Assembly: GCA_014360905.1 (NCBI GenBank)
Contig: JACIWW010000004.1
Location: forward strand, 71,994-135,993
DNA length: 64,000 bases
Direction: 5' to 3'
From: Chloroflexota bacterium
GTDB taxonomy: Bacteria > Chloroflexota > Anaerolineae > UBA2200
In this document: piece after piece, positions 31,513 to 57,820 of the stretch
How the letters are laid out: every line of letters begins with the position of its first letter
Numbering within the stretch: the first letter of the stretch is position 1
Position numbers and translations under genes: made by a program
The notes under the pieces: generated by a model
The model's input: the letters and a program-made list of their open reading frames with translations, nothing else
What the model was told of the DNA's origin: nothing
Databases searched by the model: none

Positions 31513-32610
31513 ATGGCGGTAGAACTCGGTATTGTAGGGTTGCCTAATGTGGGCAAATCCACGCTTTTCAATGCCTTGACCAGGGCGCATGCTCTTGTAG
31601 CAAGTTATCCCTTCACCACTATCGAGCCCAATATTGGTGTGGTTCCAGTGCCTGATGAAAGGCTGCACAACATTGCCGCCATCGTCAAGCCGGAAAAGGT
31701 CGTCCCTAGCACGTTGCGCGTGGTGGACATTGCCGGGCTGGTCAAAGGGGCAAGCAAAGGGGAGGGACTAGGCAACCAGTTTTTGAGCTACATTCGTACA
31801 GTGGATGCCATAGCCATGGTAGTGCGCGCCTTTCGCAATCCCGACATCCCCCATGTTACTGCGGAATTAGACCCTATCCAAGACGTTGAGACTGTGCAGC
31901 TCGAACTCATACTAGCTGATGTGGCTACGGTAGAGCGACGGCAGGAAAGAACAAAAAGCGCAGCAAAAGGCAAGCTTGCTGAGTTCGAAGCCGAACTCGC
32001 TGCTTTGGAAGCATTGCGTCAGCATCTCAATCAGGGGCTCCCAATCCGTGGCGCAACCTTGTCGCTACTGGAAATGGAACTGGCCCGTGAAATGAATCTG
32101 TTGACAGCAAAACCTTGTCTCTACGTAGCAAATGTGGGTGAAGAGGATTTGCCTGATGGAGGTCCCTTGGTAGAGCCATTGCGGCGCCTGGCTGCTAAAG
32201 AAGGAACAGAACTCGTGGTCATCTGTGCCCAGTGCGAGGCGGAGTTGACAGAATGGCCCGATGAAGAAGCCATTGGCTACCTACGTGAGTTAGGAGTGCA
32301 AGAACCAGGCCTCAATCGCTTCATCAAGTCCGGATACCGTCTCTTGAATTTGATCACATTCTTCACCATCACTGGCGGAAAAGAAGTGCGTGCCTGGCCT
32401 ATCCAGCGCGGCACTGCTGTCATCGAAGCTGCTGGCCGCATCCACAGCGATATGCAGCGCGGCTTTATCCGTGCTGAGGTGATGAGTTACAACGATCTGG
32501 TTCAGTCTGGCTCAGCGACTGCAGTGCGCGAAAAAGGTTTGTTGCACCTGGAAGGTCGGGATTATATCGTGCAGGATGGGGACATCATTCATATACGTTT
32601 TAGCGTTTAA
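31513..32610 (+). CDS. ychF: Ribosome-binding ATPase YchF (Obg-family GTPase).
   Basis: 365 aa. GIVGLPNVGKSTLFNALT G1 motif. C-terminal TGS domain. Confidence 0.9.
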   Translation: MAVELGIVGLPNVGKSTLFNALTRAHALVASYPFTTIEPNIGVVPVPDERLHNIAAIVKPEKVVPSTLRVVDIAGLVKGASKGEGLGNQFLSYIRTVDAIAMVVRAFRNPDIPHVTAELDPIQDVETVQLELILADVATVERRQERTKSAAKGKLAEFEAELAALEALRQHLNQGLPIRGATLSLLEMELAREMNLLTAKPCLYVANVGEEDLPDGGPLVEPLRRLAAKEGTELVVICAQCEAELTEWPDEEAIGYLRELGVQEPGLNRFIKSGYRLLNLITFFTITGGKEVRAWPIQRGTAVIEAAGRIHSDMQRGFIRAEVMSYNDLVQSGSATAVREKGLLHLEGRDYIVQDGDIIHIRFSV

Positions 32611-32753: not shown

Positions 32754-33902
32754 TCATTTGCTGGCCTCGAGCACTTGCCGTGCAATGACCAGGCGCTGGA
32801 TTTCACTTGTCCCCTCGCCAATCGTGGTTAGGCGGTTGTCACGGTAGATGCGTTCGACATCGTACTCCTTCATATAGCCGTATCCGCCGTGAATCTGGAT
32901 GGCTTTGAAACAAGCCCGTTCGGCAGCCTCAGAGGCATACAACTTAGCCATAGCCGCTTCCTTGGTAAAGCGCACTCCTTTATCCTTGAGCCAAGCAGCG
33001 CGGTATACTAGCAATCGCGCCGCCTCGATCTCGGTCGCCATATCGGCGATCATCCACTGGATAGCCTGGAATCGAGCAATAGGTTGGCCAAACTGCACAC
33101 GCTCCTTGGAGTATTTAAGCGCTGCTTCAAAGGCGCCCTGTGCCAGCCCAACAGCCATAGCGCCAATGCTGATGCGTCCGCCATCCAAAGTGATCAAGAA
33201 CTGCTTGTACCCCTCACCTGGTTGGCCAAGCAGGTTTTCCTTCGGCACACGGCAATCTTCGAAGAAAAGCTGCGAGGTAACCGACCCCTTGAGCCCCATC
33301 TTCTCTTCATCGCGTCCAGGGCGAAAACCTGGTGTTCCCTTTTCTACGATAAAGTTGCTAATGCCCCGTGTGCCGGCCGACTTATCCGTAACCGCAGCAA
33401 TGATGACCACATCAGCAATGGAACCAGAGGTGATGAAAATTTTTTGCCCATTGATCACCCAGTGATCTCCGTCCAAGACCGCTGTGGTCTTGATGGCAGC
33501 AGCATCGGAACCTGCTTCTGGCTCTGTAAGGCCAAAGGCAGCCAGTCCTTGGCCAGAAGCCAATTTTGGCAGGTATTTACGTTTTTGTTCCTCGGTGCCA
33601 AAGCGGTAGATGGGATACAAACCCAAGGAGGTATGAGCGGCTAAAGTGATTCCAATGGATCCCGAGACACGAGAAATCTCTTCCACAGCAAGGGCATAAG
33701 ATATAGTATCCGCGCCAGAACCTCCATACTCTTCGGGAATGGGCAAGCCCATCAGCCCCAGGCTACCCATCTTGCGGATGATCTCCCAGGGGAATTGCCC
33801 AGTTGCATCGATTTCTCTGGTGATTGGCCGGATTTCCTTTTCGGTGAAATCATGCACCATTCTGCGGATCATCTGTTGTTCTTCAGTCAGTTCAAAGTCC
33901 AT
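32754..33902 (-). CDS. Acyl-CoA dehydrogenase.
   Basis: 382 aa. LTEEQ..IR N-terminus. YGG..D and C-terminal TIGEGTSEIQR motifs of the ACAD family. Confidence 0.85.
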   Translation of the reverse strand: MDFELTEEQQMIRRMVHDFTEKEIRPITREIDATGQFPWEIIRKMGSLGLMGLPIPEEYGGSGADTISYALAVEEISRVSGSIGITLAAHTSLGLYPIYRFGTEEQKRKYLPKLASGQGLAAFGLTEPEAGSDAAAIKTTAVLDGDHWVINGQKIFITSGSIADVVIIAAVTDKSAGTRGISNFIVEKGTPGFRPGRDEEKMGLKGSVTSQLFFEDCRVPKENLLGQPGEGYKQFLITLDGGRISIGAMAVGLAQGAFEAALKYSKERVQFGQPIARFQAIQWMIADMATEIEAARLLVYRAAWLKDKGVRFTKEAAMAKLYASEAAERACFKAIQIHGGYGYMKEYDVERIYRDNRLTTIGEGTSEIQRLVIARQVLEASK

Positions 33903-33991
33903 TCAGCAATCTCCCTCTTCTGTTAGCATAGACCAAGCAATTCTGAATACTAGTTTTCGCTTATTACTCCTCACTCATTACTCGCTATCCG

Positions 33992-34759
33992 TCACTTGCC
34001 AATCGCAATGCCCGTTGGGTCTATCTCCCGCAGAATGCGACGTTCTTCGGCAGTAGGTGGTTCCGTCATCTCGACGTGCTCTGGAATCAGGATCTCAAAC
34101 TCACTATTCTCCTGAATTTGTTCTATGGTTACGCCAGGATGGGTTGCGAGGAGCATGAGCCTTTTGGTCGTCTCATCGAAGCCATAAAGGCCAAGCTGTG
34201 TAATGACTCGGTACGGCCCGGTGCCTGCAGGCAGACCAGCCTTCTCTCGTGCGCCAGGCCCTGTCAGATAGCCTGGTGTTGTGATGAAATCTACCTTCTT
34301 CAGAAAGCGTCGTTTTTCCTGACGCATCATGATAATAGTCCGCCAGGAGAAAGACCCCACATCATTCGCGCCACCACTGCCAGGTAGGCGGGCTGTAGGG
34401 TGATCATGCTCACCGATAACCGTGGTATTGATGTTGCCATACATATCAATCATCGCTGCGCCAAGGAAACCGTAGTCGATGTATCCCGACTGTGAGATAG
34501 ACATCACGTCGTGCATGCTAGAAGCAGCAACAGCCTGGTAGAAAGTCCGTGATTCACCAACCGAGATAGGCAAGACCGGTACTCGCGGCCCTATTCCGCC
34601 GGCTTCGAAGATGATCAGTAGGTTGGGAGCGTGTGTCCGTTGTGCCAGCATGCCTGCAATCATTGGTAATCCTGTCCCCACAAAGGCAGACTTTCCGTCT
34701 TCCAACAACCTGCTGGCTACCACGGCTAATAGTTCTGTGGGCGTATAGTCTGCTTGCAT
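33992..34759 (-). CDS. Family I CoA-transferase, subunit B (glutaconate or 3-oxoacid CoA-transferase beta-like).
   Basis: 255 aa. Conserved glutamate region EAGGIG...PISVGE typical of beta subunits. Confidence 0.7.
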   Translation of the reverse strand: MQADYTPTELLAVVASRLLEDGKSAFVGTGLPMIAGMLAQRTHAPNLLIIFEAGGIGPRVPVLPISVGESRTFYQAVAASSMHDVMSISQSGYIDYGFLGAAMIDMYGNINTTVIGEHDHPTARLPGSGGANDVGSFSWRTIIMMRQEKRRFLKKVDFITTPGYLTGPGAREKAGLPAGTGPYRVITQLGLYGFDETTKRLMLLATHPGVTIEQIQENSEFEILIPEHVEMTEPPTAEERRILREIDPTGIAIGK

Positions 34760-34762
34760 GAT

Positions 34763-35860
34763 TTACTCCTCCTTCTTCAGCCAGGGTGCCCTCATGGGTG
34801 CTCGCAGTTCCTCCACCTGCTTCAAATATTGCAGCTTGCGTAGCCCTCCTACGAGTTCTAGATACTCGTTAAAATCTTTGGTCCCGTGCACATATTTATC
34901 AAAATATTCTTTGGTGCCTTCTGGTGTTTTGGACAATTGTAGCCACTCACCAATATGCTCCTCATCAAAGAAATAGCGCAGGGGCATCTGGCATGGATGG
35001 GAACCATAGGGCACTTCCACCACTGCATCCACAAGGAAGAACGGGATGACAGTTCGCCACGGGGTCCTGCGGATCTCTGACTCGGGGATAATCTCCTCTG
35101 TAGTCAAAATCAAACGCCTTGCTGCCCGAGCGAGCTCGAAGTCTTCGATCAGTGTGCCGTCAATTTGGGCATTGCCGTATATATCGCAGCGCGGCACATG
35201 GATAAAAACCACATCAGGATAGCAAGCAGGCAAGAGACAGATCGGCTTGCCACTAAATGGATCTTTCACGACTTTGGCTGAACTGTGCTTAAGCGTGTCC
35301 GTGCCAAGCATGTTCCGTGTGGGAATAAAGGGCACGCCCATCATCCCGGCAAGAAAGCGCCATTGATAGGCAGCATTGCTCAGCTCTGCGATAACCCTGC
35401 ACTGCCCCGTCTCTACAGCTCGACGCGAAGCGGGTGATAAACCACGTAGTTCGTGGCCAAAAGCATAGGCCACTTCGATGCGATCCACACAGCCCGAACC
35501 AATCAAGATGTCCGCATCATGTACCGCCGTCTTGCCAGCCAGGATTAGGTTTTTCTTCCGCTGGCGGATGATCTCGTACACGGCAGCCATGGAAACGCGG
35601 ATGTGGCCAAATCCACCAAAGGCAATGTAAGCGCCATCGAAAACGTATTTCGCCACGGCTTCCGCTATGGTCGTGCGCTTGTCTTTCAGATTCCGCGATT
35701 TGTTTTCGCGGATCCAAGCACGATGCTCGTCTGGGTCATGCCAGCCCACTAACTCTCCGCAGCCTTCTGCTAGGATCTCCATACCCTCCTCCCTGTTACA
35801 GGATTCCGCAAGACCCCAAAAGGGTTGAGAAACGCCTCTTGGGGTCTCGTGATCGCTCAA
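34763..35860 (-). CDS. Family I CoA-transferase, subunit A.
   Basis: 365 aa. Pairs with the downstream B subunit across a 3-nt gap. GGFG motif. Confidence 0.7.
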   Translation of the reverse strand: MSDHETPRGVSQPFWGLAESCNREEGMEILAEGCGELVGWHDPDEHRAWIRENKSRNLKDKRTTIAEAVAKYVFDGAYIAFGGFGHIRVSMAAVYEIIRQRKKNLILAGKTAVHDADILIGSGCVDRIEVAYAFGHELRGLSPASRRAVETGQCRVIAELSNAAYQWRFLAGMMGVPFIPTRNMLGTDTLKHSSAKVVKDPFSGKPICLLPACYPDVVFIHVPRCDIYGNAQIDGTLIEDFELARAARRLILTTEEIIPESEIRRTPWRTVIPFFLVDAVVEVPYGSHPCQMPLRYFFDEEHIGEWLQLSKTPEGTKEYFDKYVHGTKDFNEYLELVGGLRKLQYLKQVEELRAPMRAPWLKKEE

Positions 35861-36351
35861 GCGTTAACTGGTACAAAGTGCACAATATCCAGAATGGATC
35901 CCTCGCGTTCACGCTTAGGTTTGAAAACGGCTTTGACTCTCATGCCAATAGTCAGTTCATCAAGGCCCACCTTGCCTAAACGATGGACCAACACGCTATC
36001 CGCACCATCCAACTGGATAAGAGCCAGGATTTCTGGTTCCTCAAGCGGAGAACCATCAGGAGCGATGAGCAAAACGGTGAAGCTCTGTACTGTCCCTTCA
36101 GGGCCTACCTCCACCCATTCATCCAGTTTCGAGAAACAGCGTTCGCAATAGATGGCGGGGGGCACGTACGTGTAATCGCATTCTGGACAGTGCGTGCCCA
36201 CGAAACGGGCATTGTCCATCATCTCGCGGAAGAATCTCTCGCCCGCCAGGCCGCAAGTGTAGCGTCCTTGGATGGGCATATCTCCGCGCCAAACTCTTGC
36301 TTGAATATTCTTGTCTACTTTCTCTAGCAAGGCCATGGGTTTCCTCCTCAC
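35857..36351 (-). CDS. DUF35 protein: rubredoxin-like Zn ribbon plus OB fold (thiolase scaffold subunit).
   Basis: 164 aa. CPEC...CERC ribbon followed by an OB-fold-like C-terminus. 4-nt overlaps with both neighbours. Confidence 0.7.
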   Translation of the reverse strand: MRRKPMALLEKVDKNIQARVWRGDMPIQGRYTCGLAGERFFREMMDNARFVGTHCPECDYTYVPPAIYCERCFSKLDEWVEVGPEGTVQSFTVLLIAPDGSPLEEPEILALIQLDGADSVLVHRLGKVGLDELTIGMRVKAVFKPKREREGSILDIVHFVPVNA

Positions 36352-36857
36352 TCAACAGGTTTGAAGTAGAGGATATCGGTGATGGCGCCGATGCGTTCCG
36401 CGGCAGGTTTCCATACCGCCTTGACTTTCATGCCAATTTTGACCTGTTTGGGGTCTACCTCGCCCAGCAGGTGCAAAATACCCATGCCTTTGGACGCCCC
36501 GGCGATCTCGATAACGGCTGGGATCAGCGGTTCTTCAAGACGTTCCATATCCCATCGCACATGGCAGATAGAGAAGGTGTTCACCACTCCGTGATCCTCC
36601 AGGTACACCCATTCGTCCATGGGTCGAAAGCACCACTCGCAAAAGATGCGCGGCGGCACCACGGTGCGCCGGCAGCGGTGACAGTGTACTCCAATAATAC
36701 GTCCTTCCTTTAGCTCTGCCAGATAGCGGCCAATGGCAATGCCTGCATCCCAGGCATATTGCGCATTTGGCTTCCATTCAGTGAAAAGTACCTTTCTCTC
36801 CGTAAAGTCGGACTCGCGTAGCCCTACACCAGGAAACTCTTTGATCTTGGCAGTCAT
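36348..36857 (-). CDS. DUF35 Zn-ribbon/OB-fold protein, paralog of the gene above.
   Basis: 169 aa. CHRC...CEWC ribbon. Same architecture. Confidence 0.7.
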   Translation of the reverse strand: MTAKIKEFPGVGLRESDFTERKVLFTEWKPNAQYAWDAGIAIGRYLAELKEGRIIGVHCHRCRRTVVPPRIFCEWCFRPMDEWVYLEDHGVVNTFSICHVRWDMERLEEPLIPAVIEIAGASKGMGILHLLGEVDPKQVKIGMKVKAVWKPAAERIGAITDILYFKPVE

Positions 36858-36866
36858 TTTCTCCTC

Positions 36867-38039
36867 CTATCCCCCAATCCCCAGGATGATCACGGTGCCT
36901 ACCTGCATCAGGTCACCCCAAGCCTGGGCCAGCCCAGTGATGGGTTTGCCGGGCACTTGTCGTTTGCCAGCCTCGCCCCTTAGTTGCCAGAAAATCTCAG
37001 CGACCTTCATCAAACCTGCAGCGGCGATGGGGTTGCCCACTCCCAACAGTCCACCCGAAGGGCAGACGGGCATGTTGCCAGTACGCGCGGTCACGCCTTC
37101 CGCGGTTAGGCGTGGGGCTTCACCCTTATCCGCCAGAAGCAATCCTTCCAAATGGTGCAGCTCCTTGTAGTCGAACGGATCGTAAGGCTCAACGACATGG
37201 ATCTCTTTGCGTGGTTCGCGAATGCCAGCCATCTCATAAGCCATGCGCGCGGCATACTCCACGTACTTGGGATAGTACAGGTCTCGGTTCGTCCAGTACG
37301 CAGTGTCCAATGACCATCCCACGCCTTTGATCCACACTGGTTTATCTGTGATACGCTTGGCTACGTTTTCTGCGGCAAGTACCACGGCCACAGCGCCATC
37401 CGTGACGGGGCTTACATCCAATCGTTGCACTGGCCAGGCCAACACCTCGGAGTTCAAAACATCCTCTACCGTGATATTCGGATCGCCCAGCAGCGCGCAA
37501 GGGTGATCAGCCGCATTGCGCTTGTTCTTCACCGACACCAGAGCGATATCTTTTTTCTGCAGGCCATATGTCTGCATGTAGCGGTTCATTTCCAAGGCAA
37601 AAATCCACAGCAAGTTAGGTCCCAGCGGACGCTCGGTGGTGTGGTCGAAGATGGTAAGAAACGCTCCCTGTGGATGAGGCTGGCAACTGGACATCTTTTC
37701 CTCGCAGACGACCAGGCAGACATCGAACAGGCCAGAGGCGACATGATACCAGCCCTGAATCGGAGCAAACACCCCAGTGCCACCCCCCACATACGAGCGC
37801 ATGAATGGCTTGCGCCAAGCTCCCGCTCCATCGCTCAGGTACTCGCCCTTCATGTGCACGGCGTCAAAAGCATCTGGAGCGGTGCCAAGCGCCACGGCAT
37901 CCACATCATCCAGGGTGAGCTCACAAGAATCCAGCGCCATTTTCGCAGCCTCGTAGGCTAATTCCCTGCCGGTTTCCTGGGCGCGTCGGACGAACTTGGT
38001 CATTCCTGCACCAACTACGGCTACCTTTCTCAGACCCAT
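36867..38039 (-). CDS. Thiolase-fold protein of the SCP-x / lipid-transfer-protein (archaeal-type thiolase) class.
   Basis: 390 aa. VAVVGAGMTKF N-terminus and overall thiolase fold. It lacks the canonical two-domain biosynthetic-thiolase motifs. Confidence 0.7.
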   Translation of the reverse strand: MGLRKVAVVGAGMTKFVRRAQETGRELAYEAAKMALDSCELTLDDVDAVALGTAPDAFDAVHMKGEYLSDGAGAWRKPFMRSYVGGGTGVFAPIQGWYHVASGLFDVCLVVCEEKMSSCQPHPQGAFLTIFDHTTERPLGPNLLWIFALEMNRYMQTYGLQKKDIALVSVKNKRNAADHPCALLGDPNITVEDVLNSEVLAWPVQRLDVSPVTDGAVAVVLAAENVAKRITDKPVWIKGVGWSLDTAYWTNRDLYYPKYVEYAARMAYEMAGIREPRKEIHVVEPYDPFDYKELHHLEGLLLADKGEAPRLTAEGVTARTGNMPVCPSGGLLGVGNPIAAAGLMKVAEIFWQLRGEAGKRQVPGKPITGLAQAWGDLMQVGTVIILGIGG

Positions 38040-38051
38040 TTTGACCTCCTC

Positions 38052-39203
38052 TCAATTGCACAGGATGACTGCGGCGCCGCTTGTTGTGGGCAAACCACGC
38101 CAAGCGAAAGCCAGGCCAGCCTCTACATCGGGCAGTTGATGCTGGCCCGCCTCGCCGCGCAGTTGCAGCACTACTTCTAGCAGCCGTGCCAATCCAGAAG
38201 CATCCAGCAAATGACCCATCCCCAAGCTGCCCCCAGAAGGATTCACCGGAAAATCGCCCCCAATCTCAGTAGCCCCATCCTCGGTCAGCATCCCGGCTTC
38301 CCCTGGACGACAGAGGCGTAACGCTTCCATATGCTGTAGTTCTTTGTAAGAGAATGTATCGTCAATCTCGGCAAAATCTAATTCCTGCCAAGGAGTTCGG
38401 ATGCCAGCCATCCGGTAGGCCGTCTCTCCCGCTTTTGCTGCATAGATAGCGTTCATCCAATCCCTGTTTTCCAGAGAGAACGAATCGTTGCACCACCCTA
38501 CACCTCGAATCCATATGGGTATATCGCTCAGTTCTTCCGCTCGTTCTCTTGCAGCCAGGACCATGACAATGGCTCCATCCGCACGGGGACTCATATCCAG
38601 TCGCGAAAGGGGATAGGAGACTATCTCAGATTGCAAGACATCCTCGATAGCAATGTTGGCTCCGTACGCAGCAAGGGGATTGTACAAGGCGTTGTGCTTG
38701 TTCTTCGCTACTACCAGCGCGCATTGTTCCCTGGTAGTGCCCGTCTCACACAGGTAACGGTTCATCTCCAAACCAGCAATGAAATGGGGATTGACCTGCA
38801 GGGGTCGGTTGTACACCGGGTCCATCGCAAAGGCCATGATTTCATCGGGAGTAAGGATGTTCGATGCCTTGCTATGAGCCTCCACTGCCACAATGTCCAT
38901 CGCCCCGGTGAGGATCTGTAGGTACGCGGCAATGAAACCATGCAAGCCTTCTCCGGAAATGGTATGGACTGGTTTCAGCACCGCCCCCAGTTGGTCGGGG
39001 ACATACTCATCGAAAATGCTCGTGCCTTCCGTGAAATCCTCCGCTACAGTCACAAAACTCTCGATATCGCGGCGCGGATCTACGCCAGCATCTTCATACG
39101 CTTTGACCGCTGCCTCGTACATCAGTTCCTTGTATGACACTTCTGGCGTCAAGGCACGGAAACCAGAATAGCCTACGCCAATAATAGCTACTTCTCTAGG
39201 CAT
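38052..39203 (-). CDS. Second SCP-x-type thiolase-fold protein, paralog of the gene above.
   Basis: 383 aa. VAIIGVGYSGF N-terminus. Same family. Confidence 0.7.
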   Translation of the reverse strand: MPREVAIIGVGYSGFRALTPEVSYKELMYEAAVKAYEDAGVDPRRDIESFVTVAEDFTEGTSIFDEYVPDQLGAVLKPVHTISGEGLHGFIAAYLQILTGAMDIVAVEAHSKASNILTPDEIMAFAMDPVYNRPLQVNPHFIAGLEMNRYLCETGTTREQCALVVAKNKHNALYNPLAAYGANIAIEDVLQSEIVSYPLSRLDMSPRADGAIVMVLAARERAEELSDIPIWIRGVGWCNDSFSLENRDWMNAIYAAKAGETAYRMAGIRTPWQELDFAEIDDTFSYKELQHMEALRLCRPGEAGMLTEDGATEIGGDFPVNPSGGSLGMGHLLDASGLARLLEVVLQLRGEAGQHQLPDVEAGLAFAWRGLPTTSGAAVILCN

Positions 39204-39308
39204 AGCAGACCTCCTCTCTGAGTAGTGAATGGGGCACAGAATACTGTTTCAGCTCTCGATACGCTTCACCTCCTCTCCTGGAACAAGGATTCCCGATCCC
39301 GTTCTTGA

Positions 39309-40625
39309 TCATCTACCGAATCTTGTGTTGAGCACGTCCTGTAATGTGGGCCGTCCAATCTCCTGCAGTTCGTAGCGCACGCGTTGCGTCGGGCGGTTGA
39401 TCTTGACCACGCGCCGCAGATCAATAGGCGTGGCAACGATGACCATGTCGCATGGCGTGACATTGATGGTTTCTTCCAGCTCCTGAATTTGCCTGGCTCC
39501 ATAACCCATAGCCGGCAGCACAGAGCCGGTATGAGGATATTTCTGATAAGTCTCTGCGATAGAACCAACTGCATAAGGTCGCGGATCTACGATTTCTGCC
39601 GCCCCAAAGCGCCGCGCAGCCACAACGCCCGCGCCATAGGACATCTCGCCATGAGTCAGAGTAGGACCATCCTCCACAACCAGGACTCGGCGTCCTCTGA
39701 TTGCCTGTGGGTCATCAACAAATATGGGGGATGCCGCATCCACCACGACAGCACGGGGGTTCACGGCCAAGATGTTGTGTCGGACTGTCTCCATCTTATC
39801 TGGCTCTGATGTATCGATCTTGTTGATGACGACCACATCTGCCATGCGCAAATTGGCTTCGCCAGGGTGGTACCGCAGCTCGTGTCCAGCTCGATGGGGA
39901 TCCGTAACAACGATATGCAGATCAGGCTTGTAAAATGGCAAATCGTTGTTGCCGCCATCCCACAATAGGATTTCGGCCTCTTGTTCCGCTTGACGCAGAA
40001 TTCGTTCGTAATCCACACCTGCATAGACAATAGTGCCTCTATCCAAGTGAGGCTCGTATTCCTCGCGTTCTTCGATGGTGCATTCATACTTGTCCAGGTC
40101 TTCATAACTGGCAAACCGCTGATAAACCTGTTTAACCAGATTGCCATAGGGCATGGGATGTCGCACGACAACTACCTTTTTCCCCATCTGACGCAGGATA
40201 TCCGAAACACGGCGCGTCGTCTGGCTCTTTCCACTGCCGGTACGAACAGCGCAGACGGAAACTACCGGCACTTTGGCTTTCAACATAGTCTCTTTGCTCA
40301 TCAAACGGAAATCTGCACCTACAGCCAAGACCTGTGACGCTTTGTGCATCACGTATTCATGGGGCACATCGCTGTAAGCAAAAACTACCTGGTCTATATC
40401 CCGCTCGCGGATGAGCGTTTCGAGCTCGCTTTCAGGATAAATGGGAATGCCAGCGGGATAGAGTTTACCAGCCAGCTCTGGGGGGTATGTGCGTCCCTCA
40501 ATATTGGGTATCTGCGTGGCAGTGAAAGCAACCACCTCAAAAAGGGGGTTATCACGGAAACAAACGTTAAAGTTATGAAAATCGCGCCCTGCAGCGCCCA
40601 TGATCAACACGCGTGTCTTCTTCAT
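39309..40625 (-). CDS. P-loop NTPase, tentatively of the cyclic 2,3-diphosphoglycerate synthetase-like family.
   Basis: 438 aa. Walker-A-like AVRTGSGKSQT in the middle of the protein. The family assignment is from memory of the architecture only. Confidence 0.35.
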   Translation of the reverse strand: MKKTRVLIMGAAGRDFHNFNVCFRDNPLFEVVAFTATQIPNIEGRTYPPELAGKLYPAGIPIYPESELETLIRERDIDQVVFAYSDVPHEYVMHKASQVLAVGADFRLMSKETMLKAKVPVVSVCAVRTGSGKSQTTRRVSDILRQMGKKVVVVRHPMPYGNLVKQVYQRFASYEDLDKYECTIEEREEYEPHLDRGTIVYAGVDYERILRQAEQEAEILLWDGGNNDLPFYKPDLHIVVTDPHRAGHELRYHPGEANLRMADVVVINKIDTSEPDKMETVRHNILAVNPRAVVVDAASPIFVDDPQAIRGRRVLVVEDGPTLTHGEMSYGAGVVAARRFGAAEIVDPRPYAVGSIAETYQKYPHTGSVLPAMGYGARQIQELEETINVTPCDMVIVATPIDLRRVVKINRPTQRVRYELQEIGRPTLQDVLNTRFGR

Positions 40626-40668
40626 CGAAGCATCTCCTCTTAATCAAGCAGCCCCAAAAGCCTTACTG

Positions 40669-41589
40669 CTAGGAAGCCCCGCATTCCGCAGCAAGCAAGG
40701 CACCAGCCGCAATGCATACCAACCGCGTCTCAGGCGGGTCAGCTCGTGAACCAACCACCAGTGGTGCTTTGCCCCCGACCACCAGGCCAGCCATGCGGCC
40801 TCCAGCAAAGTAGGTAATCCCTTTGGCCATGATGTTAACCGATTCCACATCCGGCCCCACCAGCACCTCAGCATAGCCCGCTACCGGCCCGCCGCGGCCA
40901 CGCTGTCGCGCAATCTCTGGCGACACGGCCGTATCTAAGAGAAAAGGCCCATCAACAAGCGCACCCTCGGCCAGCCACCGGTCTTGCATGGCCACAATCT
41001 CTGCAATTTCAACCGTCACAGGCAATTCTGCAAAAACCTCATCAGTTGCTGCCAGAAGGGCCACTTTAGGCTGTTGAATGCCAAATCCACGCGCCACGGC
41101 GATGCTATTGCTGATAATCTCGATCTTTTGCTCTTTGGTAGGATAAAGCACGACACCGCCATCCGCGATGAAGAGCAAGCGGTCGAAGCCAGGCACTTCA
41201 AAAACGCCTACGTGAGAGATAAGGCGGTTCGTTCGCAGCCCAGCCTCACGCGCCAATGCCGCGCGGAGAAAGGTGCTGGTTGGCAATTGCCCTTTAATCG
41301 CTACTTTGGCATCGCCCGTGGCTACAAGGCGCATGCTTTTCTCAGCTGCTACTGCCTCATCCAGCTCATCCACGATGTGCATCGTGGCGAGATCTAAGCC
41401 ACGTTCACGTGCTATCTCGTGGATGCTCTGAGCACACCCAACCAATGTAGCGTCAATAATGCCGCGTACTTGAGCCTCACAAGCAGCTTGTAAAACTTCA
41501 TATTCATGTGCTGCAGTGATCACCACCGGGACTGGCCCCACGGCAGCGGCTGCTGCGAGCAATTCCTGGTAATTTTTGATGGGGGGCAT
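40669..41589 (-). CDS. Phosphate acetyl/butyryl-transferase (short Pta/Ptb family).
   Basis: 306 aa. Size and GD.K..IKG style motifs of the Pta_PTB family. Confidence 0.65.
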   Translation of the reverse strand: MPPIKNYQELLAAAAAVGPVPVVITAAHEYEVLQAACEAQVRGIIDATLVGCAQSIHEIARERGLDLATMHIVDELDEAVAAEKSMRLVATGDAKVAIKGQLPTSTFLRAALAREAGLRTNRLISHVGVFEVPGFDRLLFIADGGVVLYPTKEQKIEIISNSIAVARGFGIQQPKVALLAATDEVFAELPVTVEIAEIVAMQDRWLAEGALVDGPFLLDTAVSPEIARQRGRGGPVAGYAEVLVGPDVESVNIMAKGITYFAGGRMAGLVVGGKAPLVVGSRADPPETRLVCIAAGALLAAECGAS

Positions 41590-41643: not shown

Positions 41644-42354
41644 TCACGAACGTCCCCGATAGGCCAATTTGGCCAATAGAATACCCACTTCATACATCAG
41701 CAACAAGGGCAGCATCACTAACCCCATATTAAAGGGATCAGGAGTAGGTGTGATGACTGCTGCGAGCACTGCAATAATCAGAATAGCGAATTTACGATTC
41801 TGTGACAGGAATTGGGGCGAGATGATGCGTAAGCGAGCCAAAAAGTAAAGGATCAACGGTGTCTCAAAGATAACCCCAGACCAAAAGAGAAGCGTTGTCA
41901 CAAAGGAAATATATTCGCCGATGGTCCACTTGGCCTCCACCAGATCACCGCCGAAGGAGACCAAATAACGCAAAGCAAAGGGTAACAATACGAAATAGGT
42001 GAACAGCACTCCCAGGATGAAAGACAGTGTGGCTGCTGGAACGATAATACGCACGTACAGTCGCTCGCTGTTCCGGAGCCCTGGCCATACAAATTGGATC
42101 GTTTGATATACGATAACCGGCATCGCCAAAATGCTGCCAGCCAAAAGCGCCACTCTGAAATAGGTGACAAACATTTCCGTGGGCCGTAAAAAAACTGGCT
42201 TGATTCCTGCTGGAGCGATGAGGATGCGCATGATCTGAGTAGTGAAAGCAAAAGACAGGGCAGTCGTGATCGCTACCGCGATCAGGCATTTCATCAGCCG
42301 CTGACGCAGCTCCTCAAGGTGTTCGATGATGGTCATCTGCACTTCATTTGCCAT
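41644..42354 (-). CDS. tatC: Twin-arginine translocase subunit TatC.
   Basis: 236 aa. HLEELRQRL N-terminal motif. Six hydrophobic helices. Confidence 0.85.
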   Translation of the reverse strand: MANEVQMTIIEHLEELRQRLMKCLIAVAITTALSFAFTTQIMRILIAPAGIKPVFLRPTEMFVTYFRVALLAGSILAMPVIVYQTIQFVWPGLRNSERLYVRIIVPAATLSFILGVLFTYFVLLPFALRYLVSFGGDLVEAKWTIGEYISFVTTLLFWSGVIFETPLILYFLARLRIISPQFLSQNRKFAILIIAVLAAVITPTPDPFNMGLVMLPLLLMYEVGILLAKLAYRGRS

Positions 42355-42432
42355 AGACGCTAACCCTTAGCTCATCCTCCTCGGCTAAGCTGTTTCTAGT
42401 AAGTACCTCACCTCTGGCTCACAGCGTTACGC

Positions 42433-42852
42433 CTACTCTGTAGACACTGCGCCTCGATTCGACACCAGTGTGCCTAGCACACCATTGACAAAACGTCGCG
42501 AACTATCGCTCCCAAAGAGCTTGGCGAGTTCCACTGCTTCATTAATCGCCACTTTAACTGGCGTTTGCCCATCCACCGTTATTTCGTAAACGGCAATGCG
42601 CAATATGTTCCGGTCCACAATAGCCATCTGCTCCAGAGGCCAATCGGTTGCAATGTTCTGGATGATCTCATCCAGTTCCTGAAGGTGCTCTAATACCCCC
42701 AACACCAATTGTCTGGCAAAAGTCCTCCCCTCAGCAGGCAGGGGCTTCTCTTCGAGACGCTGTGCCAGAACTTGTTCTGCGGGATGGTTTACACTATCTA
42801 CTTCGAACAAGGTTTGCAGGGCCACGATGCGGGCCTGACGTCTGGTCTTCAT
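42433..42852 (-). CDS. nusB: Transcription antitermination factor NusB.
   Basis: 139 aa. RRQARIVALQTLFEVD N-terminus. Confidence 0.85.
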   Translation of the reverse strand: MKTRRQARIVALQTLFEVDSVNHPAEQVLAQRLEEKPLPAEGRTFARQLVLGVLEHLQELDEIIQNIATDWPLEQMAIVDRNILRIAVYEITVDGQTPVKVAINEAVELAKLFGSDSSRRFVNGVLGTLVSNRGAVSTE

Positions 42853-42861
42853 TTTCGAACC

Positions 42862-43197
42862 CTAGGCTTCGCGAGCCTCCACATCCACGATGTGCACATT
42901 CACTTCACTAACAGCCATGCCCACGATTTCACGGATCGCACGACTCACTTTGGACTGTATTTCTCGACTTAATTGCAGCATATTGACATCGGTAGCAGCT
43001 ACAATGTAAATATCCAGAATCACTGCGTCATCAATGACCTGCACCTTGACACCCCCGCCTTGGCGTGCACTCCAAAGCCGATGCACTCCCAGCGGGCTCA
43101 TTTGCACCACGCCTGGTACTGAGAGCGTGGTCTGTCGGGCAATCGTTGCCAAGACTGTCGGAGAGATCACTACTGTGCCCAATTTCCGTTCCACCAC
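42862..43197 (-). CDS. Asp23/Gls24-family (alkaline shock) protein. The start was placed at an internal GTG to avoid running through the fabG 3' end.
   Basis: Conserved Asp23 core (GTVVISPTVLATIARQ ... VNVHIVDV). The drawn ORF extends 147 nt further upstream with a non-protein-like N-terminus. Confidence 0.6.
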   Translation of the reverse strand: MVERKLGTVVISPTVLATIARQTTLSVPGVVQMSPLGVHRLWSARQGGGVKVQVIDDAVILDIYIVAATDVNMLQLSREIQSKVSRAIREIVGMAVSEVNVHIVDVEAREA

Positions 43198-43225
43198 TGT
43201 GCCTTCTCCTTTGCAATCACTGCCG

Positions 43226-43975
43226 TCATTGCATTGCCAAGCCGCCATCCACAGACAACACTTGTCCTGTGATATAACTGGCCTCGTCCGAAACCAGAAA
43301 AGCCACGGCATTGGCAATGTCCTCTGGAGATCCGGGACGCCCAAGGGGCGTCATTTCTATACCTTTTGCGACTAGCTCTGGGGGCAAGATAGCGGTCAGA
43401 TCCGTAGGGATGTAGCCTGGGGCTACTGCATTGACCGTGATGTTGCGCACCCCCACTTCCTTGGCCAATGCCTTGGTAAAACCAACCAGACCTGCCTTGG
43501 CGGCGGCATAGTTTGCCTGACCCGGATTGCCAGCCAACCCGGCGATCGAAGTGATGTTGACGATACGGCCGTAACGTTGTTTGAGCATCGGACGCTGGGC
43601 TGCTTTGGTGCAATTGAAAGCCCCTTTCAGATTGGTGTTGATTACTACGTCCCAATCCTCTTCAGACATACGCACCAACAGGGTATCACGGGTAGTACCC
43701 GCATTATTGACCAAGATATCTAATCGACCAAAGTGATCCAATGCACTCTGAATCAGCCTTTGTGCGTCGTCGTAGATGCTGACATCAGCCTGCACAGCGA
43801 TCGCCTCCCCCCCTATGGCGCGGATGTGCTGCACCACTTCCTCTGCCGCAGCCTGATTGCTGCGGTAGTTAACCACCACTTTTGCTCCCAAGCTGGCCAG
43901 TTTAATGGCAATGGCTCGACCAATACCACGGGATGCTCCAGTTACGACTGCTACCCTGCCGTCTAATTCCCTCAT
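43226..43975 (-). CDS. fabG: 3-oxoacyl-[ACP] reductase FabG.
   Basis: Start taken at MRELDGRVAVVTGASRGIGRAIA. NNAG and YxxxK (YAAAK) motifs. Follows fabD. Confidence 0.85.
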   Translation of the reverse strand: MRELDGRVAVVTGASRGIGRAIAIKLASLGAKVVVNYRSNQAAAEEVVQHIRAIGGEAIAVQADVSIYDDAQRLIQSALDHFGRLDILVNNAGTTRDTLLVRMSEEDWDVVINTNLKGAFNCTKAAQRPMLKQRYGRIVNITSIAGLAGNPGQANYAAAKAGLVGFTKALAKEVGVRNITVNAVAPGYIPTDLTAILPPELVAKGIEMTPLGRPGSPEDIANAVAFLVSDEASYITGQVLSVDGGLAMQ

Positions 43976-44958
43976 GTTTCCACCAACATTTCGATTTCTT
44001 GCACAGTGCCCGCGTTGAGGATGCACACGCTACGGTCAATACGCTTGATCAGCCCGCTCAATACATCCTTTGGCCCAATCTCGACGAAAGTTTGCACTCC
44101 GTGAGCAATCATATAGCGCACAGATTCCACCCAGCGCACAGGCGAAGTGAGATGCTGCACCAGTTCACGACGGATATCCGCTGGCTCCACAATAGCGGAG
44201 GCAGAGACATTGCTCACAATGGGCACTTGAGCTTTGTTCAGGGTCAACCCATTCACGATAATAGCAAAGGATTCTGCTGCAGGCTCCATCAATGGGGAAT
44301 GAGAAGCAATATTTACCGCTAACGGAACAACCCTTTTCGCCCCTCTTCCCATAGCCAATTGCAGTGCCTTTTCTAGCGCAGGTTTACTGCCCGACAGCAC
44401 AATTTGCCCCGGTGCATTATCGTTGGACACCCATACGTTGCCTACTTCCTCGCAAATAGCACGCAATGGTCCAACTTCAAGACCCAACACCGCGGCCATA
44501 GCTCCTGGCTTTTTGTCTCCAACTTCTTTCATCAAACGCCCTCGCTCGCGAACTAGCCGCAGGGCTGAGGCGAAATCAAGCACCCCGGCTGCAAACAAAG
44601 CCGTGTATTCACCCGTACTGTGCCCAGCCACAAAGGCTGGGGTTCTGCCTTGGAACCAGCCCTCAGAGGTCGGGCGTTTTGCCTCTACCTGCTCTTGCAA
44701 AACAGCCCATAATGCTGCGCTGACGGTGAGCATGGCTGGTTGAACATTGACCGCATCCATCAGTTCGTCATCTGGCCCCTCGAAACACAATCTAGAAAGG
44801 GGGAAATGAAGGATGGCATCCGCTTCTTCAAAAAAGCACTTTGCTGTCGGGTAGCGGTCATACACATCGCGGCCCATGCCTACATATTGAGAGCCGCTGC
44901 CAGGAAAGACAAAAGCCAATTTGTTCTGTGTTGCTATGGACACTGCCTCGCTGTTCAT
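43972..44958 (-). CDS. fabD: Malonyl-CoA:ACP transacylase FabD.
   Basis: 328 aa. FVFPGSGSQYVGMG and GHSTGE active-site serine motif. Confidence 0.85.
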   Translation of the reverse strand: MNSEAVSIATQNKLAFVFPGSGSQYVGMGRDVYDRYPTAKCFFEEADAILHFPLSRLCFEGPDDELMDAVNVQPAMLTVSAALWAVLQEQVEAKRPTSEGWFQGRTPAFVAGHSTGEYTALFAAGVLDFASALRLVRERGRLMKEVGDKKPGAMAAVLGLEVGPLRAICEEVGNVWVSNDNAPGQIVLSGSKPALEKALQLAMGRGAKRVVPLAVNIASHSPLMEPAAESFAIIVNGLTLNKAQVPIVSNVSASAIVEPADIRRELVQHLTSPVRWVESVRYMIAHGVQTFVEIGPKDVLSGLIKRIDRSVCILNAGTVQEIEMLVET

Positions 44959-45917
44959 TGAGAGCTACAGCTATCGGTGACATGGCGCGGCAAATGCAGC
45001 AAGAGATCCTCAGCCTCTGAGATGATGCGTTCGATTAATTCAGCAACGCTAGGAATATCATGAACCAGGCCACAACTTTGCCCAGCCATAAAAGACCCTT
45101 CTACTACATTCCCTTCCACAGCCGCCAGACGCAGCTTGCCTGTTCCAAACTCGATGAGCGCCTCTTCACTAAGCTCCTGCTTCTCCATCTCCTCGAATTT
45201 GCGTGTCATGGGGTTACGCAGAGCACGCACGGGATGGCCCAGGCTATGCCCCGTGGTGATCGTGGCTCTGTCGCCAGCTTTGACAATCATGTCCTTGTAG
45301 TTCGGGTGCACTGTGCATTCTTTCGTACAGATAAAGCGCGTGCCCATTTGTATACCGACTGCTCCCAACGCAAGCGCTGCTACTAAACCGCGCCCATCAG
45401 CAAATCCCCCTGCCGCTATAACAGGAATCTGCACTGCATCTACAACCTGGGGTACCAGGGGCAATGTCCCCACATCTCCGATATGCCCCCCCGATTCGCT
45501 GCCCTCTGCTATCACCGCATCTGCACCAACTCGTTCGAGTCGTTTGGCAAGCGCTACGGATGCTACCACCGGTATCACCAGGATGCCCGCTTGTTTCAAT
45601 ATGGGAATGTAAGCGCTGGGGTTCCCTGCTCCCGTGGTGACCACTGGCACCTTTTCGCGCACGCAGATCTGGAAAACATCCTGAGCAAAGGGGGAAAACA
45701 TGGGTACGTTGACCCCGAAGGGCTTACTGGTGCACCTCTTGATCTCACGTATCTGCGCCTCAACCAAATCAGGCGGGGCATTCCCTGCCCCCAGGATGCC
45801 TAAAGCTCCTGCTTCAGAGACCGCAACTACCAGAGGAGGGGTTGAAACCCAAGCCATCCCCCCTTGCAGAATTGGATGTTCAATGTCTAGTAAGTCACAA
45901 AGAGGCGTTCTAATCAT
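44955..45917 (-). CDS. fabK: Enoyl-[ACP] reductase II FabK (FMN-dependent, nitronate monooxygenase fold).
   Basis: 320 aa. HPILQGGMAWVS N-terminus. Position immediately upstream of fabD, as in Streptococcus/Clostridia FAS clusters. Confidence 0.7.
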   Translation of the reverse strand: MIRTPLCDLLDIEHPILQGGMAWVSTPPLVVAVSEAGALGILGAGNAPPDLVEAQIREIKRCTSKPFGVNVPMFSPFAQDVFQICVREKVPVVTTGAGNPSAYIPILKQAGILVIPVVASVALAKRLERVGADAVIAEGSESGGHIGDVGTLPLVPQVVDAVQIPVIAAGGFADGRGLVAALALGAVGIQMGTRFICTKECTVHPNYKDMIVKAGDRATITTGHSLGHPVRALRNPMTRKFEEMEKQELSEEALIEFGTGKLRLAAVEGNVVEGSFMAGQSCGLVHDIPSVAELIERIISEAEDLLLHLPRHVTDSCSSQ

Positions 45918-45989
45918 GTAATTCCCTTCTTGCCTTGATGCCGTCTGCCTCGAGCTAACAGAAAGGCTCGTTAGGCAAGGTTTCGATGC

Positions 45990-46190
45990 CTAAGATTCTT
46001 TTTTAGTCTTGGTCTTGATCTCGATGACCTCGGTGCCCTTGTAACTGCCACAAGATGGGCACACGTGGTGCGGACGACGCAATTCATGGCATTGCGGGCA
46101 GGGCACCAATTTAGTCGTTTTCAACGCCAGATGGCTGCGCCTGCGATCACGTCGTCCTTTCGATATTTTCCTTTTCGGTAATGCTCCCAC
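45990..46190 (-). CDS. rpmF: 50S ribosomal protein L32.
   Basis: 66 aa. PKRK.S..RR..RRSH N-terminus. CPQC...CPSC Zn ribbon. Confidence 0.85.
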   Translation of the reverse strand: MGALPKRKISKGRRDRRRSHLALKTTKLVPCPQCHELRRPHHVCPSCGSYKGTEVIEIKTKTKKES

Positions 46191-46216
46191 GACGTAAATA
46201 CTCCTTTCCAGATAGG

Positions 46217-46735
46217 CTACAACAAGCCATGCAAGATCATCAGTCTGGGATCGCTCTCCTCATACTGACAATCACATGGCCCCTCATTCAGATTTTTTCC
46301 GCACTGCGGGCATAAACCTCGGCATTGTGGGCTACACAACGGCGCTATAGGTACGCCTAGCAGCAAGTTCTGACGCACCACCTCCGTAAGATCAAGAATG
46401 TGATGCAAATCCGTCCTGGTCGCCTCGTCCTCACCGACCTCAAGAGGCAGCAGTGCGCCGGTCAATATATCTACAGAAGGACGGAAATGCTCCTCTAATT
46501 CCAGCACAACGGACACGGTAACCGGTGTCAAACACCGCCGACAAGGTACTCGGATCTCCGTCTGCAAGTGACCTGTCACAAGGATCCCACTGCCAGTACG
46601 CAAGAGCCTAACCCTGCCAAGCAGCATTGAAACAATGTCTAAATCCTCGTCAATGCCAGTGATGTCCTCGTCGAGATCATATTCCCTGCTAGCACCAGCA
46701 GGAGATTTGAGCAATTGAGCTACATTGAAGCGCAT
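46217..46735 (-). CDS. yceD: YceD/DUF177 family protein (large-subunit rRNA accumulation protein).
   Basis: 172 aa. Conserved position immediately upstream of rpmF. C-terminal CxxC...CxxC. Confidence 0.75.
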   Translation of the reverse strand: MRFNVAQLLKSPAGASREYDLDEDITGIDEDLDIVSMLLGRVRLLRTGSGILVTGHLQTEIRVPCRRCLTPVTVSVVLELEEHFRPSVDILTGALLPLEVGEDEATRTDLHHILDLTEVVRQNLLLGVPIAPLCSPQCRGLCPQCGKNLNEGPCDCQYEESDPRLMILHGLL

Positions 46736-51318: not shown

Positions 51319-51336
51319 GCTCGCGTCCTCCTCTAA

Positions 51337-53025: not shown

Positions 53026-53078
53026 AACCTTACCTCCATCCCAGCGCTCATAGTACGTGATGAATTGCTCGTCACGTC

Positions 53079-57818: not shown

Positions 57819-57820
57819 CT

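Follow-up and report, generated by a model that had tools for sequence, protein, structure and literature searches.

The 64-kb stretch of DNA analysed here (the window) lies on a public contig of a Chloroflexota metagenome-assembled genome (MAG) and carries nine open reading frames (ORFs) on the minus strand at 32754-41589, exactly where an earlier sequence-only reading of the window had placed them; the same nine gene calls are present on the public contig as NCBI proteins MBC7244293-301, under names that are all generic. Within this run, two genes for thiolase-fold proteins (thlA and thlB) are followed by two genes for Zn-ribbon/OB-fold proteins of the DUF35 type (duf35a and duf35b), and these four genes (35857-39203), not the nine-gene cluster, very probably constitute the functional unit. 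ThlA (38052-39203, 383 amino acids [aa]) is a degenerate thiolase-fold subunit with Thiolase_N/Thiolase_C_1 domains and presumably a non-catalytic partner, whereas ThlB (36867-38039, 390 aa) is the conserved, presumably catalytic one, marked by Gly86, Tyr286-Asp-Pro-Phe and Gly-Asn336-Pro. Both DUF35a (36348-36857, 169 aa) and DUF35b (35857-36336, 159 aa from an ATG at 36336, or 164 aa from a GTG at 36351) have zf-ChsH2 and OB_ChsH2_C domains; in DUF35a the CxxC...CxxC motif is conserved and the best solved relative is SSO2064 (3irb; E=4e-10). The module is flanked by genes for a phosphate acyltransferase and a predicted P-loop GTPase upstream, and for a two-subunit CoA-transferase and an acyl-CoA dehydrogenase (ACAD) downstream.

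A species-level scan (one genome per species), with search patterns from a narrowed alignment (A2; a 20-sequence alignment, A1, was too diverse), returned at least 583 loci, and we kept the 80 best by ThlB similarity. These are chiefly from Anaerolineae, with some MAGs labelled Actinomycetes, Krumholzibacteria, WOR-3, Bathyarchaeia, Symbiobacterium and Deltaproteobacteria, and some of the latter labels may reflect mis-binning. Among these best 80 the order thlA-thlB-duf35a-duf35b is constant in every sufficiently long locus, with thlA and thlB adjacent in 64 of 76 loci (and separated by a small ORF in seven more) and thlB followed by both DUF35 genes in 69 of 74. The pairing of thiolase folds with DUF35 proteins that the sequence-only reading had pointed out is real and universal in the relatives. 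ThlB is 77-96% identical across the best 80 loci, and in loci with all genes its mean identity to the window is 86%, compared with 71% for ThlA, 67% for both FabG and DUF35a, 60% for NusB, 55% for DUF35b, 52% for TatC and 50% for FabD, although the ThlB value is biased upward by the ranking of loci on ThlB similarity. A natural 731-aa fusion of ThlB, DUF35a and DUF35b (P0122, in which the second Zn-ribbon is degenerate) provides Rosetta-stone evidence for a physical complex, and P0139 likewise joins ThlB to both DUF35 domains. All nine genes occur together in one of 82 related loci, that of the closest relative (L006, ThlB 96% identical), so the nine genes did not hold up as a conserved unit when neighbourhoods were compared: the phosphate acyltransferase gene is upstream of the module in 2 of 60 loci, the GTPase gene immediately 5' of thlA in 13 of 62 and the CoA-transferase genes downstream in 3 of 54 (anywhere in the locus in six), while the ACAD gene, the commonest accessory neighbour, is immediately 3' in 12 of 66 and within 4 kb in 19 of 66.

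The catalytic sites of the two thiolase-fold proteins were read by aligning them with 7yvy, 6esq and 7pxp and with the canonical thiolase that adjoins the module in one locus (L082). Where this canonical enzyme reads VACASS, HDCF and GHP at its Cys, HDCF and GHP sites, ThlB reads VGGGTG, YDPF and GNP, and ThlA reads GEGLHG, DDTF and GHL. In ThlB the nucleophilic Cys is replaced by Gly86, the His of HDCF by Tyr286, the acid/base Cys by Pro288 and the His of GHP by Asn336. Gly86, Tyr286-Asp-Pro-Phe and Gly-Asn336-Pro are invariant across 82 orthologues, among which ThlB has no conserved Cys at any position, and G86, Y286, F289, N336 and P337 are all invariant in 36 B-type (ThlB-like) sequences of 35-95% identity. 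ThlA likewise has Gly where the nucleophilic Cys stands in 7yvy, 6esq and the L082 thiolase, and across the 82 orthologues it varies at all three catalytic sites, including the His of GHL. As the Cys is absent, ThlB cannot form an acyl-enzyme. The authors of the Sal study argued in the same way that Sal, which has Gly at this site, 'cannot catalyze thiolytic cleavage' (PMC12329534). ThlA and ThlB are therefore almost certainly not thiolases. The sequence-only reading had called them SCP-x-type thiolases, which is correct for the fold of an SCP2/SCP-x thiolase (EC 2.3.1.9/2.3.1.16/2.3.1.176) but not for the enzyme, since the catalytic residues are missing in both; nor are they ordinary biosynthetic thiolases, an alternative it had weighed.

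Both proteins match Thiolase_N/Thiolase_C_1 in Pfam (108 bits for Thiolase_C_1 of ThlA). ThlB falls inside NCBIfam NF004721/PRK06065 (660 bits, cutoff 455) and ThlA slightly under the cutoff of NF004722/PRK06066 (489 vs 516 bits), both 'thiolase domain-containing protein' families without an assigned function. Scores against the BbsB equivalog (122-130 bits, cutoff 750) are far lower, and those against the 'lipid-transfer protein' families of NCBIfam (93-169 bits, cutoffs 419-469) exclude membership. An AlphaFold model of ThlB from a 36-sequence alignment including paralogues reached a predicted local distance difference test (pLDDT) value of 85.8 (a 16-sequence alignment of at least 82% identity gave pLDDT 31 and was discarded) and superimposed on thiolases with template modelling (TM) scores of 0.84-0.92 for the top five matches. 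It was nearest to archaeal DUF35-associated thiolases (TM 0.87-0.92), the top matches being 7yvy of P. furiosus, the M. thermolithotrophicus thiolase of the thiolase/HMG-CoA synthase (HMGCS)/DUF35 complex (TM 0.92) and the Cys-less ST0096; BbsB and SCP2 thiolases followed, with Ltp2, Sal and TbSLP further off (22-24% identity). With relationships judged by bit scores, NCBIfam cutoffs and Foldseek ranks, ThlA and ThlB appear to have originated in the archaeal-thiolase lineage and not in the Ltp2/Sal lineage, on similarity rank alone.

Ltp2 and Sal, whose obligatory DUF35 partners are ChsH2 and Shy (PDB 6ok1, 9myr), are DUF35-bound retro-aldolases with a thiolase fold, a Gly at the Cys position and a Tyr (YDHF in Ltp2, YDCY in Sal) that acts as catalytic base (PMC12329534). 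ThlB shares with them the SCP2-thiolase fold, the Gly, the Tyr at the head of a Y-D-x-F/Y motif in place of HDCF and frequent ACAD neighbours, and gene adjacency and the P0122 fusion predict a DUF35 partner for it as well. However, it fits Ltp2 and Sal less well (TM 0.82-0.86) than it does its top five matches, and their proton donors, Ltp2 Tyr344 and Sal Cys304, are replaced by Asn336 (equated with Ltp2 Tyr344 and Sal Gln352 by residue spacing alone) and Pro288. In addition, Ltp2 and Sal form homodimers, and their DUF35 domain is fused to a MaoC hydratase, whereas here no hydratase is encoded, the two DUF35 proteins are free-standing and the thiolase-fold subunits are of two different kinds; the host setting is anaerobic and non-steroid. 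Two adjacent paralogous SCP-x-type thiolase-like genes are likewise found in Ltp3/Ltp4 of actinobacterial sterol catabolism, which act on C24-branched side chains, and a two-DUF35 partner may accompany ltp3/ltp4 as well. ThlA and ThlB score far under the cutoffs of PRK08256 (154-169 vs 436) and PRK07937 (93-113 vs 419), which we tentatively take, by protein length, to be the Ltp3 and Ltp4 families. Ltp3 and Ltp4 have been described as adjacent paralogous 'aldol lyases' (PMC6593523) and, as related in later papers, were assigned genetically to aldol cleavage and not to thiolysis (Wilbrink 2012, cited in PMC6593523, PMC10398937).

The closest relatives in sequence and fold are the archaeal DUF35-associated thiolase complexes (119-172 bits, TM up to 0.92), which also have a DUF35 staple and two thiolase-superfamily partners per complex. 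Unlike ThlB, those thiolases work through an acyl-enzyme and carry Cys, HDCF and GHP; they are joined by HMGCS or SDR/MaoC (SDR, short-chain dehydrogenase/reductase) as second partner and by one DUF35 type, in contrast to the degenerate thiolase paralogue and two DUF35 types found here, and Pfam detected no HMG_CoA_synt domain in the cluster. Thiolase folds that lack the nucleophilic Cys and whose function is doubtful or unknown include ST0096 of Sulfolobus tokodaii (4yzo), which ranks second among solved proteins by sequence match (130 bits) and has Ser at the Cys position in the alignment, and TbSLP (5ab4-7). ST0096 nevertheless retains His in HDMA and in GHP, SLP has YDCF and no DUF35 partner, and neither is known as a hetero-pair. 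BbsAB and PhlABC/MucABC also combine thiolase-fold subunits with a DUF35 Zn-ribbon subunit, and PhlABC pairs active with inactive thiolase-superfamily subunits, but BbsB and PhlC use a catalytic Cys and PhlA is KAS-III-like, not an SCP2-type paralogue. By these comparisons the module would work like the known thiolase-fold/DUF35 complexes, yet it stands outside the thiolase, BbsAB, Ltp2/Sal and thiolase/HMGCS families. The literature that we searched on DUF35 and thiolases in Anaerolineae or Chloroflexi, and on PDB 7yvy, 4yzo and 4u4e, contained nothing describing the module, and the SSO2064 paper treats thiolase neighbourhoods in general terms only. A hetero-pair of Cys-less SCP2-type thiolase folds with two DUF35 proteins is a new arrangement within the known thiolase-fold/DUF35 complexes, and the doubled pair is as unusual as the sequence-only reading had supposed.

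Many further relatives without the Cys were found among cluster representatives at 50% identity, both B-type (xTGGxxG / Y-x-x-F / NP) and degenerate A-type (ThlA-like). A metagenome scan seeded with B-type paralogues (~40% identity) gave 80 loci (L086-L165), in which adjacent paralogous pairs are flanked by one or two DUF35 genes. In place of the two His of thiolases, the second gene of the pair encodes Tyr and Asn in 70 of 70 cases, with Gly at the Cys position in 49 and a Cys one residue upstream (xTCGSTG) in 21; in 69 of 70 the Cys is missing from the first gene. Pfam-confirmed neighbours of these paralogues are ACAD (21 loci), MaoC (21), AMP-ligase (17), crotonase (12), BKACE (8) and acetyl-CoA-transferase (7), and where MaoC is present (21 of the 80 loci) an SDR is also found in three and 3HCDH in none. 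ACAD and MaoC without a dehydrogenase correspond to the logic of ChsE/ChsH/Ltp2, in which hydration and then aldol cleavage would replace oxidation and thiolysis. In L165 the order is GctA-GctB-A'-B'-DUF35-DUF35-ACAD-ACAD, so that the combination of a CoA-transferase (here too Gct-type), a thiolase-fold pair, DUF35 proteins and ACADs to which the sequence-only reading had drawn attention is independently repeated. By their source names, paralogues extend to Dehalococcoidia and Asgard archaea (Loki-, Frey- and Jordarchaeia), with the order A'-DUF35-B' in a lokiarchaeial locus (L166), and none of them exceeded any NCBIfam cutoff. In three loci (L087, L088, L089) a window-type module (ThlB ~730 bits) stands back-to-back with a paralogous A'-B'-DUF35 module. 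On a contig labelled Bathyarchaeia (L082:7071-12163) the module divergently adjoins a canonical Cys-containing thiolase and DUF35 pair, and its ThlB shares 77% identity with that of Chloroflexota, as might result from lateral transfer or mis-binning.

We favour the explanation, at a probability of about 0.4, that the four products form a DUF35-stapled complex that carries out Cys-independent enolate chemistry, most likely a retro-aldol reaction. Enolate-type lyase chemistry of some kind is likely from the residues retained, whereas its assignment to retro-aldol or aldol chemistry in particular is tentative. ThlB would be the catalytic subunit, in which the thiolase fold and the CoA-thioester site are kept and all residues of thiolysis are lost, with its degenerate paralogue ThlA as structural partner and the two Zn-ribbon/OB-fold proteins attached to both as staples, which is how DUF35 proteins bind in all complexes solved. 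Tyr286 and Asn336 lie at the sites of the thiolase residues that polarise the thioester and may act as hydrogen-bond donors or as a base to stabilise an acyl-CoA enolate, by which a C-C bond would be made or broken without covalent catalysis. A short 3-hydroxyacyl-CoA would then be converted to acetyl- or propionyl-CoA and a carbonyl compound, as by Ltp2 and Sal, while in the window the Gct-type transferase might activate the free acid, the ACAD (Bcd/AcrC-like) interconvert acyl- and enoyl-CoA, and the Ptb-like phosphate acyltransferase convert the acyl-CoA product to an acyl-phosphate for ATP. The retro-aldol idea was already put forward in the sequence-only reading and fits the signature of ThlB, with its Gly at the Cys position and Tyr in Y-D-x-F. 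We rank it first because the characterised Cys-less, DUF35-associated thiolase folds (Ltp2, Sal) are aldolases with this Tyr as base, because Ltp3/Ltp4, the one adjacent pair of such paralogues studied genetically, is assigned to aldol cleavage, because the ACAD and MaoC context of the paralogues mirrors ChsE/ChsH/Ltp2, and because an aldolase operon without its own hydratase has a precedent in atf1-chsH4 (PMC10398937).

Several observations weigh against this explanation. No MaoC or crotonase hydratase was found within 10 kb of the module in any of the 82 orthologous loci or anywhere in the window. The proton donors of the known aldolases are not retained, and Ltp2, Sal and SLP are less close to ThlB than true archaeal thiolases are (7yvy, 6esq; TM 0.87-0.92; 28-34% identity), so the resemblance of ThlB to aldolases would be convergent. 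A side-chain aldolase would not usually be so extremely conserved or lie among housekeeping genes, the literature searched holds no biochemically tested function for any member, and two loci place the module beside methylmalonyl-CoA mutase genes, which would better suit a decarboxylase. A close rival, which we regard as somewhat unlikely, is accordingly that the same complex decarboxylates methylmalonyl-, malonyl- or glutaconyl-CoA, with Tyr286 and Asn336 stabilising the enolate after loss of CO2. In decarboxylating condensing enzymes a His/Asn pair stabilises the enolate, and loss of the Cys gives a pure decarboxylase in KSQ and CLF. One of the two loci (L055:4934-13105, gaps of 1-80 nt) is a tight operon in the order ACAD - corrinoid adenosyltransferase - methylmalonyl-CoA mutase large subunit - B12 subunit - thlA-thlB-duf35a-duf35b - MeaB, with MeaB above its equivalog cutoff; in the other (L013:3781-10993), where thlA is missing, the order is mutase - methylmalonyl-CoA epimerase (equivalog passed) - mutase - thlB. 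The position of the module in the mutase operon is presumably that of the decarboxylase ScpB in the E. coli sbm operon. A decarboxylase would need no hydratase, in keeping with the absence of one, and its substrates would suit two neighbours in the window, the CoA-transferase, which is of glutaconate type, and the ACAD, which matches the non-decarboxylating glutaryl-CoA dehydrogenase below the threshold. TbSLP, a Cys-less SCP2-thiolase-like protein, does decarboxylate malonyl-CoA, but weakly (0.005 s-1), and Sal does not (PMC12329534). Mutase linkage is moreover confined to these 2 of 82 loci, the biochemically characterised Cys-less thiolase folds with DUF35 partners are all aldolases, and the ACAD and MaoC context of the paralogues indicates hydroxyacyl-CoA substrates.

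It is improbable that the complex is a working acetoacetyl-CoA thiolase or synthase without an enzyme thiol, in which free CoA or an acetyl-CoA enolate would attack and ThlA and the DUF35 proteins would supply a second CoA site. We know of no precedent for thiolysis without the Cys in the thiolase superfamily, the acid/base Cys and both His are lost as well, and crotonase never accompanies the module in the 82 loci; this stands against butyrate-type neighbours (the Bcd-like ACAD, 3-hydroxybutyryl-CoA dehydrogenase in L055 and L078, and Ptb), the archaeal thiolases as nearest folds, and the shared CoA site that DUF35 shapes in archaeal thiolase complexes, where it also improves condensation (10.1101/2024.07.05.601840). 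More improbable still is that the module has no catalytic role and serves fatty-acid synthesis as a scaffold or regulator that binds acyl-CoA, a reading proposed by analogy with the DUF35-mediated assembly of the Sulfolobus fatty-acid synthase, where the KT/DUF35 of S. acidocaldarius recruits a FabG-like reductase and a dehydratase, and from the position of the module after yceD-rpmF-fabK-fabD-fabG. The genes fabD-fabG-asp23-nusB-tatC do precede the module in 29 of the 52 loci with 5 kb upstream visible, and plsX, fabH, acpP and fabF, usual members of a yceD-rpmF-fab cluster, are not present in that of the window (41644-46735). The linkage is however confined to Anaerolineae and gone in the loci with the other six labels, so that it looks like inherited synteny, and the invariant polar residues lie exactly at active-site positions, which suggests catalysis. 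As a main explanation, the link to fatty-acid synthesis was rejected for this restricted distribution. Very improbable, finally, is what the sequence-only reading proposed, a nine-gene operon with two working thiolase/DUF35 pairs, dedicated to the breakdown by beta-oxidation of some unusual acid that is branched, aromatic or alicyclic. The nine genes are co-directional and tightly packed, the closest relative (L006) retains them all and the paralogous L165 repeats the transferase, pair, DUF35 proteins and ACADs; but both thiolase-fold proteins lack the catalytic Cys, the nine co-occur in that single locus, the window has neither a hydratase nor a 3-hydroxyacyl-CoA dehydrogenase, so that a beta-oxidation-like pathway is not self-contained here, and the scores for the BbsB equivalog and the lipid-transfer-protein families lie far under their cutoffs. 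An exotic substrate is probably wrong as well, since ThlB is more conserved than the surrounding housekeeping products, which, with those neighbours themselves, argues against a niche pathway.

Public pipelines name ThlA, ThlB and their relatives 'acetyl-CoA C-acetyltransferase', and because neither protein can form an acyl-enzyme, the butyrate, polyhydroxybutyrate and mevalonate steps inferred from these genes in MAGs of Anaerolineae, Dehalococcoidia and Asgard archaea are unsafe. The slower evolution of ThlB than of FabG, NusB and TatC in the same genomes suggests that the reaction is important to the abundant fermenters found in digesters and sediments. An unlikely but more far-reaching possibility is that the complex belongs to core anaerobic metabolism as a hitherto unrecognised kind of C-C enzyme, which needs no cofactor, no longer uses covalent catalysis and has replaced a textbook enzyme in Anaerolineae and other anaerobes, with methylmalonyl-/glutaconyl-CoA decarboxylase or acetoacetyl-CoA thiolase as candidates and a wider Tyr/Asn radiation reaching Dehalococcoidia and Asgard archaea; if this were true, 'acetyl-CoA C-acetyltransferase' calls would be wrong in hundreds of MAG-based reconstructions. 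The module and its paralogues make up a large branch of the thiolase superfamily in which the Gly/Tyr/Asn active site is fixed, the partner subunit is degenerate and one or two DUF35 proteins would serve as staples. This branch would lengthen the short list of non-thiolytic thiolase folds (Ltp2, Sal) by one of apparently independent origin, in the archaeal-type thiolase lineage. The system is tractable, as it comprises four small soluble proteins and calls for few, commercially available CoA esters.

For all nine products Pfam agreed with the domains given in the sequence-only reading, the P-loop protein through weak cobW/MeaB matches only. The first gene of the run (40669-41589, 306 aa), a variable accessory, encodes a Ptb-like phosphate acyltransferase (PTA_PTB, 139 bits; NCBIfam phosphate butyryltransferase, 292 bits, under the cutoff of 399), and there is no butyrate kinase among the annotated ORFs of the window. 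PlsX was ruled out as its identity by the PTA_PTB and Ptb-like matches and the lack of an FA_synthesis match. The second (39309-40625, 438 aa) is a COG2403-type predicted GTPase with a Walker A motif (GSGKS) and NKID, a recurrent upstream neighbour of the module; it has no NCBIfam match, distantly matches the cyclic 2,3-diphosphoglycerate synthetase 9sxb (E=2e-4), and has relatives named 'predicted GTPase' or 'cDPG synthase' that are 79-92% identical in Anaerolineae.

Downstream of the module, a further variable accessory, the CoA-transferase, comprises subunit A (34763-35782, 339 aa from the ATG at 35782, in an ORF that reaches a TTG at 35860; CoA_trans, 126 bits) and subunit B (33992-34759, 255 aa), whose best solved relatives are the two chains of GctAB, 1poi_A (E=1.5e-38, followed by AibA and IpdA) and 1poi_B (E=6e-54). 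Glu52 of subunit B (IIFEAGG) aligns with the Glu of ...IIVESG... in GctB, which we take to be the catalytic Glu54, and this residue is conserved in all seven orthologues or paralogues found. The pair is probably a real two-subunit family I transferase of the glutaconate CoA-transferase subgroup, although, unlike GctAB, it has no 2-hydroxyglutaryl-CoA dehydratase or Gcd genes nearby. An AibAB-like decarboxylase or IpdAB-like hydrolase was considered for the same pair and is less likely, as those proteins are more distant, GctAB is a far better match and the Glu is kept. The last gene (32754-33902, 382 aa) encodes a short-chain ACAD of Bcd/AcrC type with all three ACAD domains, which scores below the cutoffs of AcrC (acryloyl-CoA reductase; 522 vs 640 bits) and of the non-decarboxylating glutaryl-CoA dehydrogenase (375 vs 470); no etfAB was found among the annotated window ORFs.

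The nine genes may be co-transcribed. From ptb to the ACAD gene, with ATG starts, the gaps are 43, 105, 12, 9, 11, 74, 3 and 89 nt, so the gaps or overlaps of at most 50 nt reported in the sequence-only reading are exceeded by those of 105 and 89 nt and probably by that of 74 nt. The GTG at 36351 would turn the 11-nt gap, and the TTG at 35860 the 74-nt gap, into 4-nt overlaps; we favour the ATG starts at 36336 (duf35b) and 35782 (GctA) from the public gene call, in which duf35b begins at its ATG, and from homologue lengths, which for GctA are 324-349 aa. Good sequences resembling ribosome-binding sites precede thlA and the ACAD gene, a simple and uninformative consensus scan found no promoter or terminator in the long gaps, and an Rfam search of the window gave zero matches. 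The nine genes are indeed co-directional, but a single operon cannot be read from this, because the minus-strand run continues far upstream: tatC lies 54 nt upstream of ptb, and 21 further genes, including nusB, asp23, fabG, fabD, fabK, rpmF, yceD, coaD, recG, degV, fakA and rpe, extend to 63727. Only the downstream end of the nine-gene run is a real boundary, set by the convergent ychF (31513-32610).

Every neighbour of the module that recurs in several lineages is a short-chain acyl-CoA enzyme, which counts in favour of a complex acting on short acyl-CoAs: a Bcd/AcrC-like ACAD, a CitE/HpcH-type acyl-CoA lyase (between tatC and thlA in eight loci), 3-hydroxybutyryl-CoA dehydrogenase (above its NCBIfam subfamily cutoff in L055) and a Gct-type transferase. 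Small ORFs interrupt the module at the thlA/thlB junction in L008-L011, L033, L061 and L064 and at the thlB/duf35a junction in L013 and L015. By eye these resemble toxin-antitoxin or other selfish genes (PIN-like, nucleotidyltransferase/HEPN-like and GxxExxY-type). They had been examined as candidates for the missing hydratases.

Elsewhere in the window, some 30 consecutive minus-strand genes occupy 32754-63727, and the switch in orientation at ~32.7 kb, between ychF and the ACAD gene, coincides with the maximum of the cumulative GC skew at 30-32 kb, which could be a replication-related strand bias or a plain coding-strand effect. The fatty-acid synthesis genes at 41644-46735 are arranged as yceD-rpmF-fabK-fabD-fabG-asp23-nusB-tatC, with fabK in the usual plsX/fabH position. 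A fatty-acid kinase system (asp23-fakA-degV, the last being fakB) lies upstream of recG at 50479-53441, and a second DegV paralogue is encoded on the opposite strand at 17792-18739. At 56439-61147 a 459-aa fusion of YqeC with a MobA-like NTP-transferase stands beside a 1108-aa protein that combines Fer4_20 with pyridine-nucleotide-disulphide oxidoreductase domains; next come an amidohydrolase and a protein of the metallo-beta-lactamase fold. The set may represent selenium- or molybdenum-hydroxylase accessory genes.

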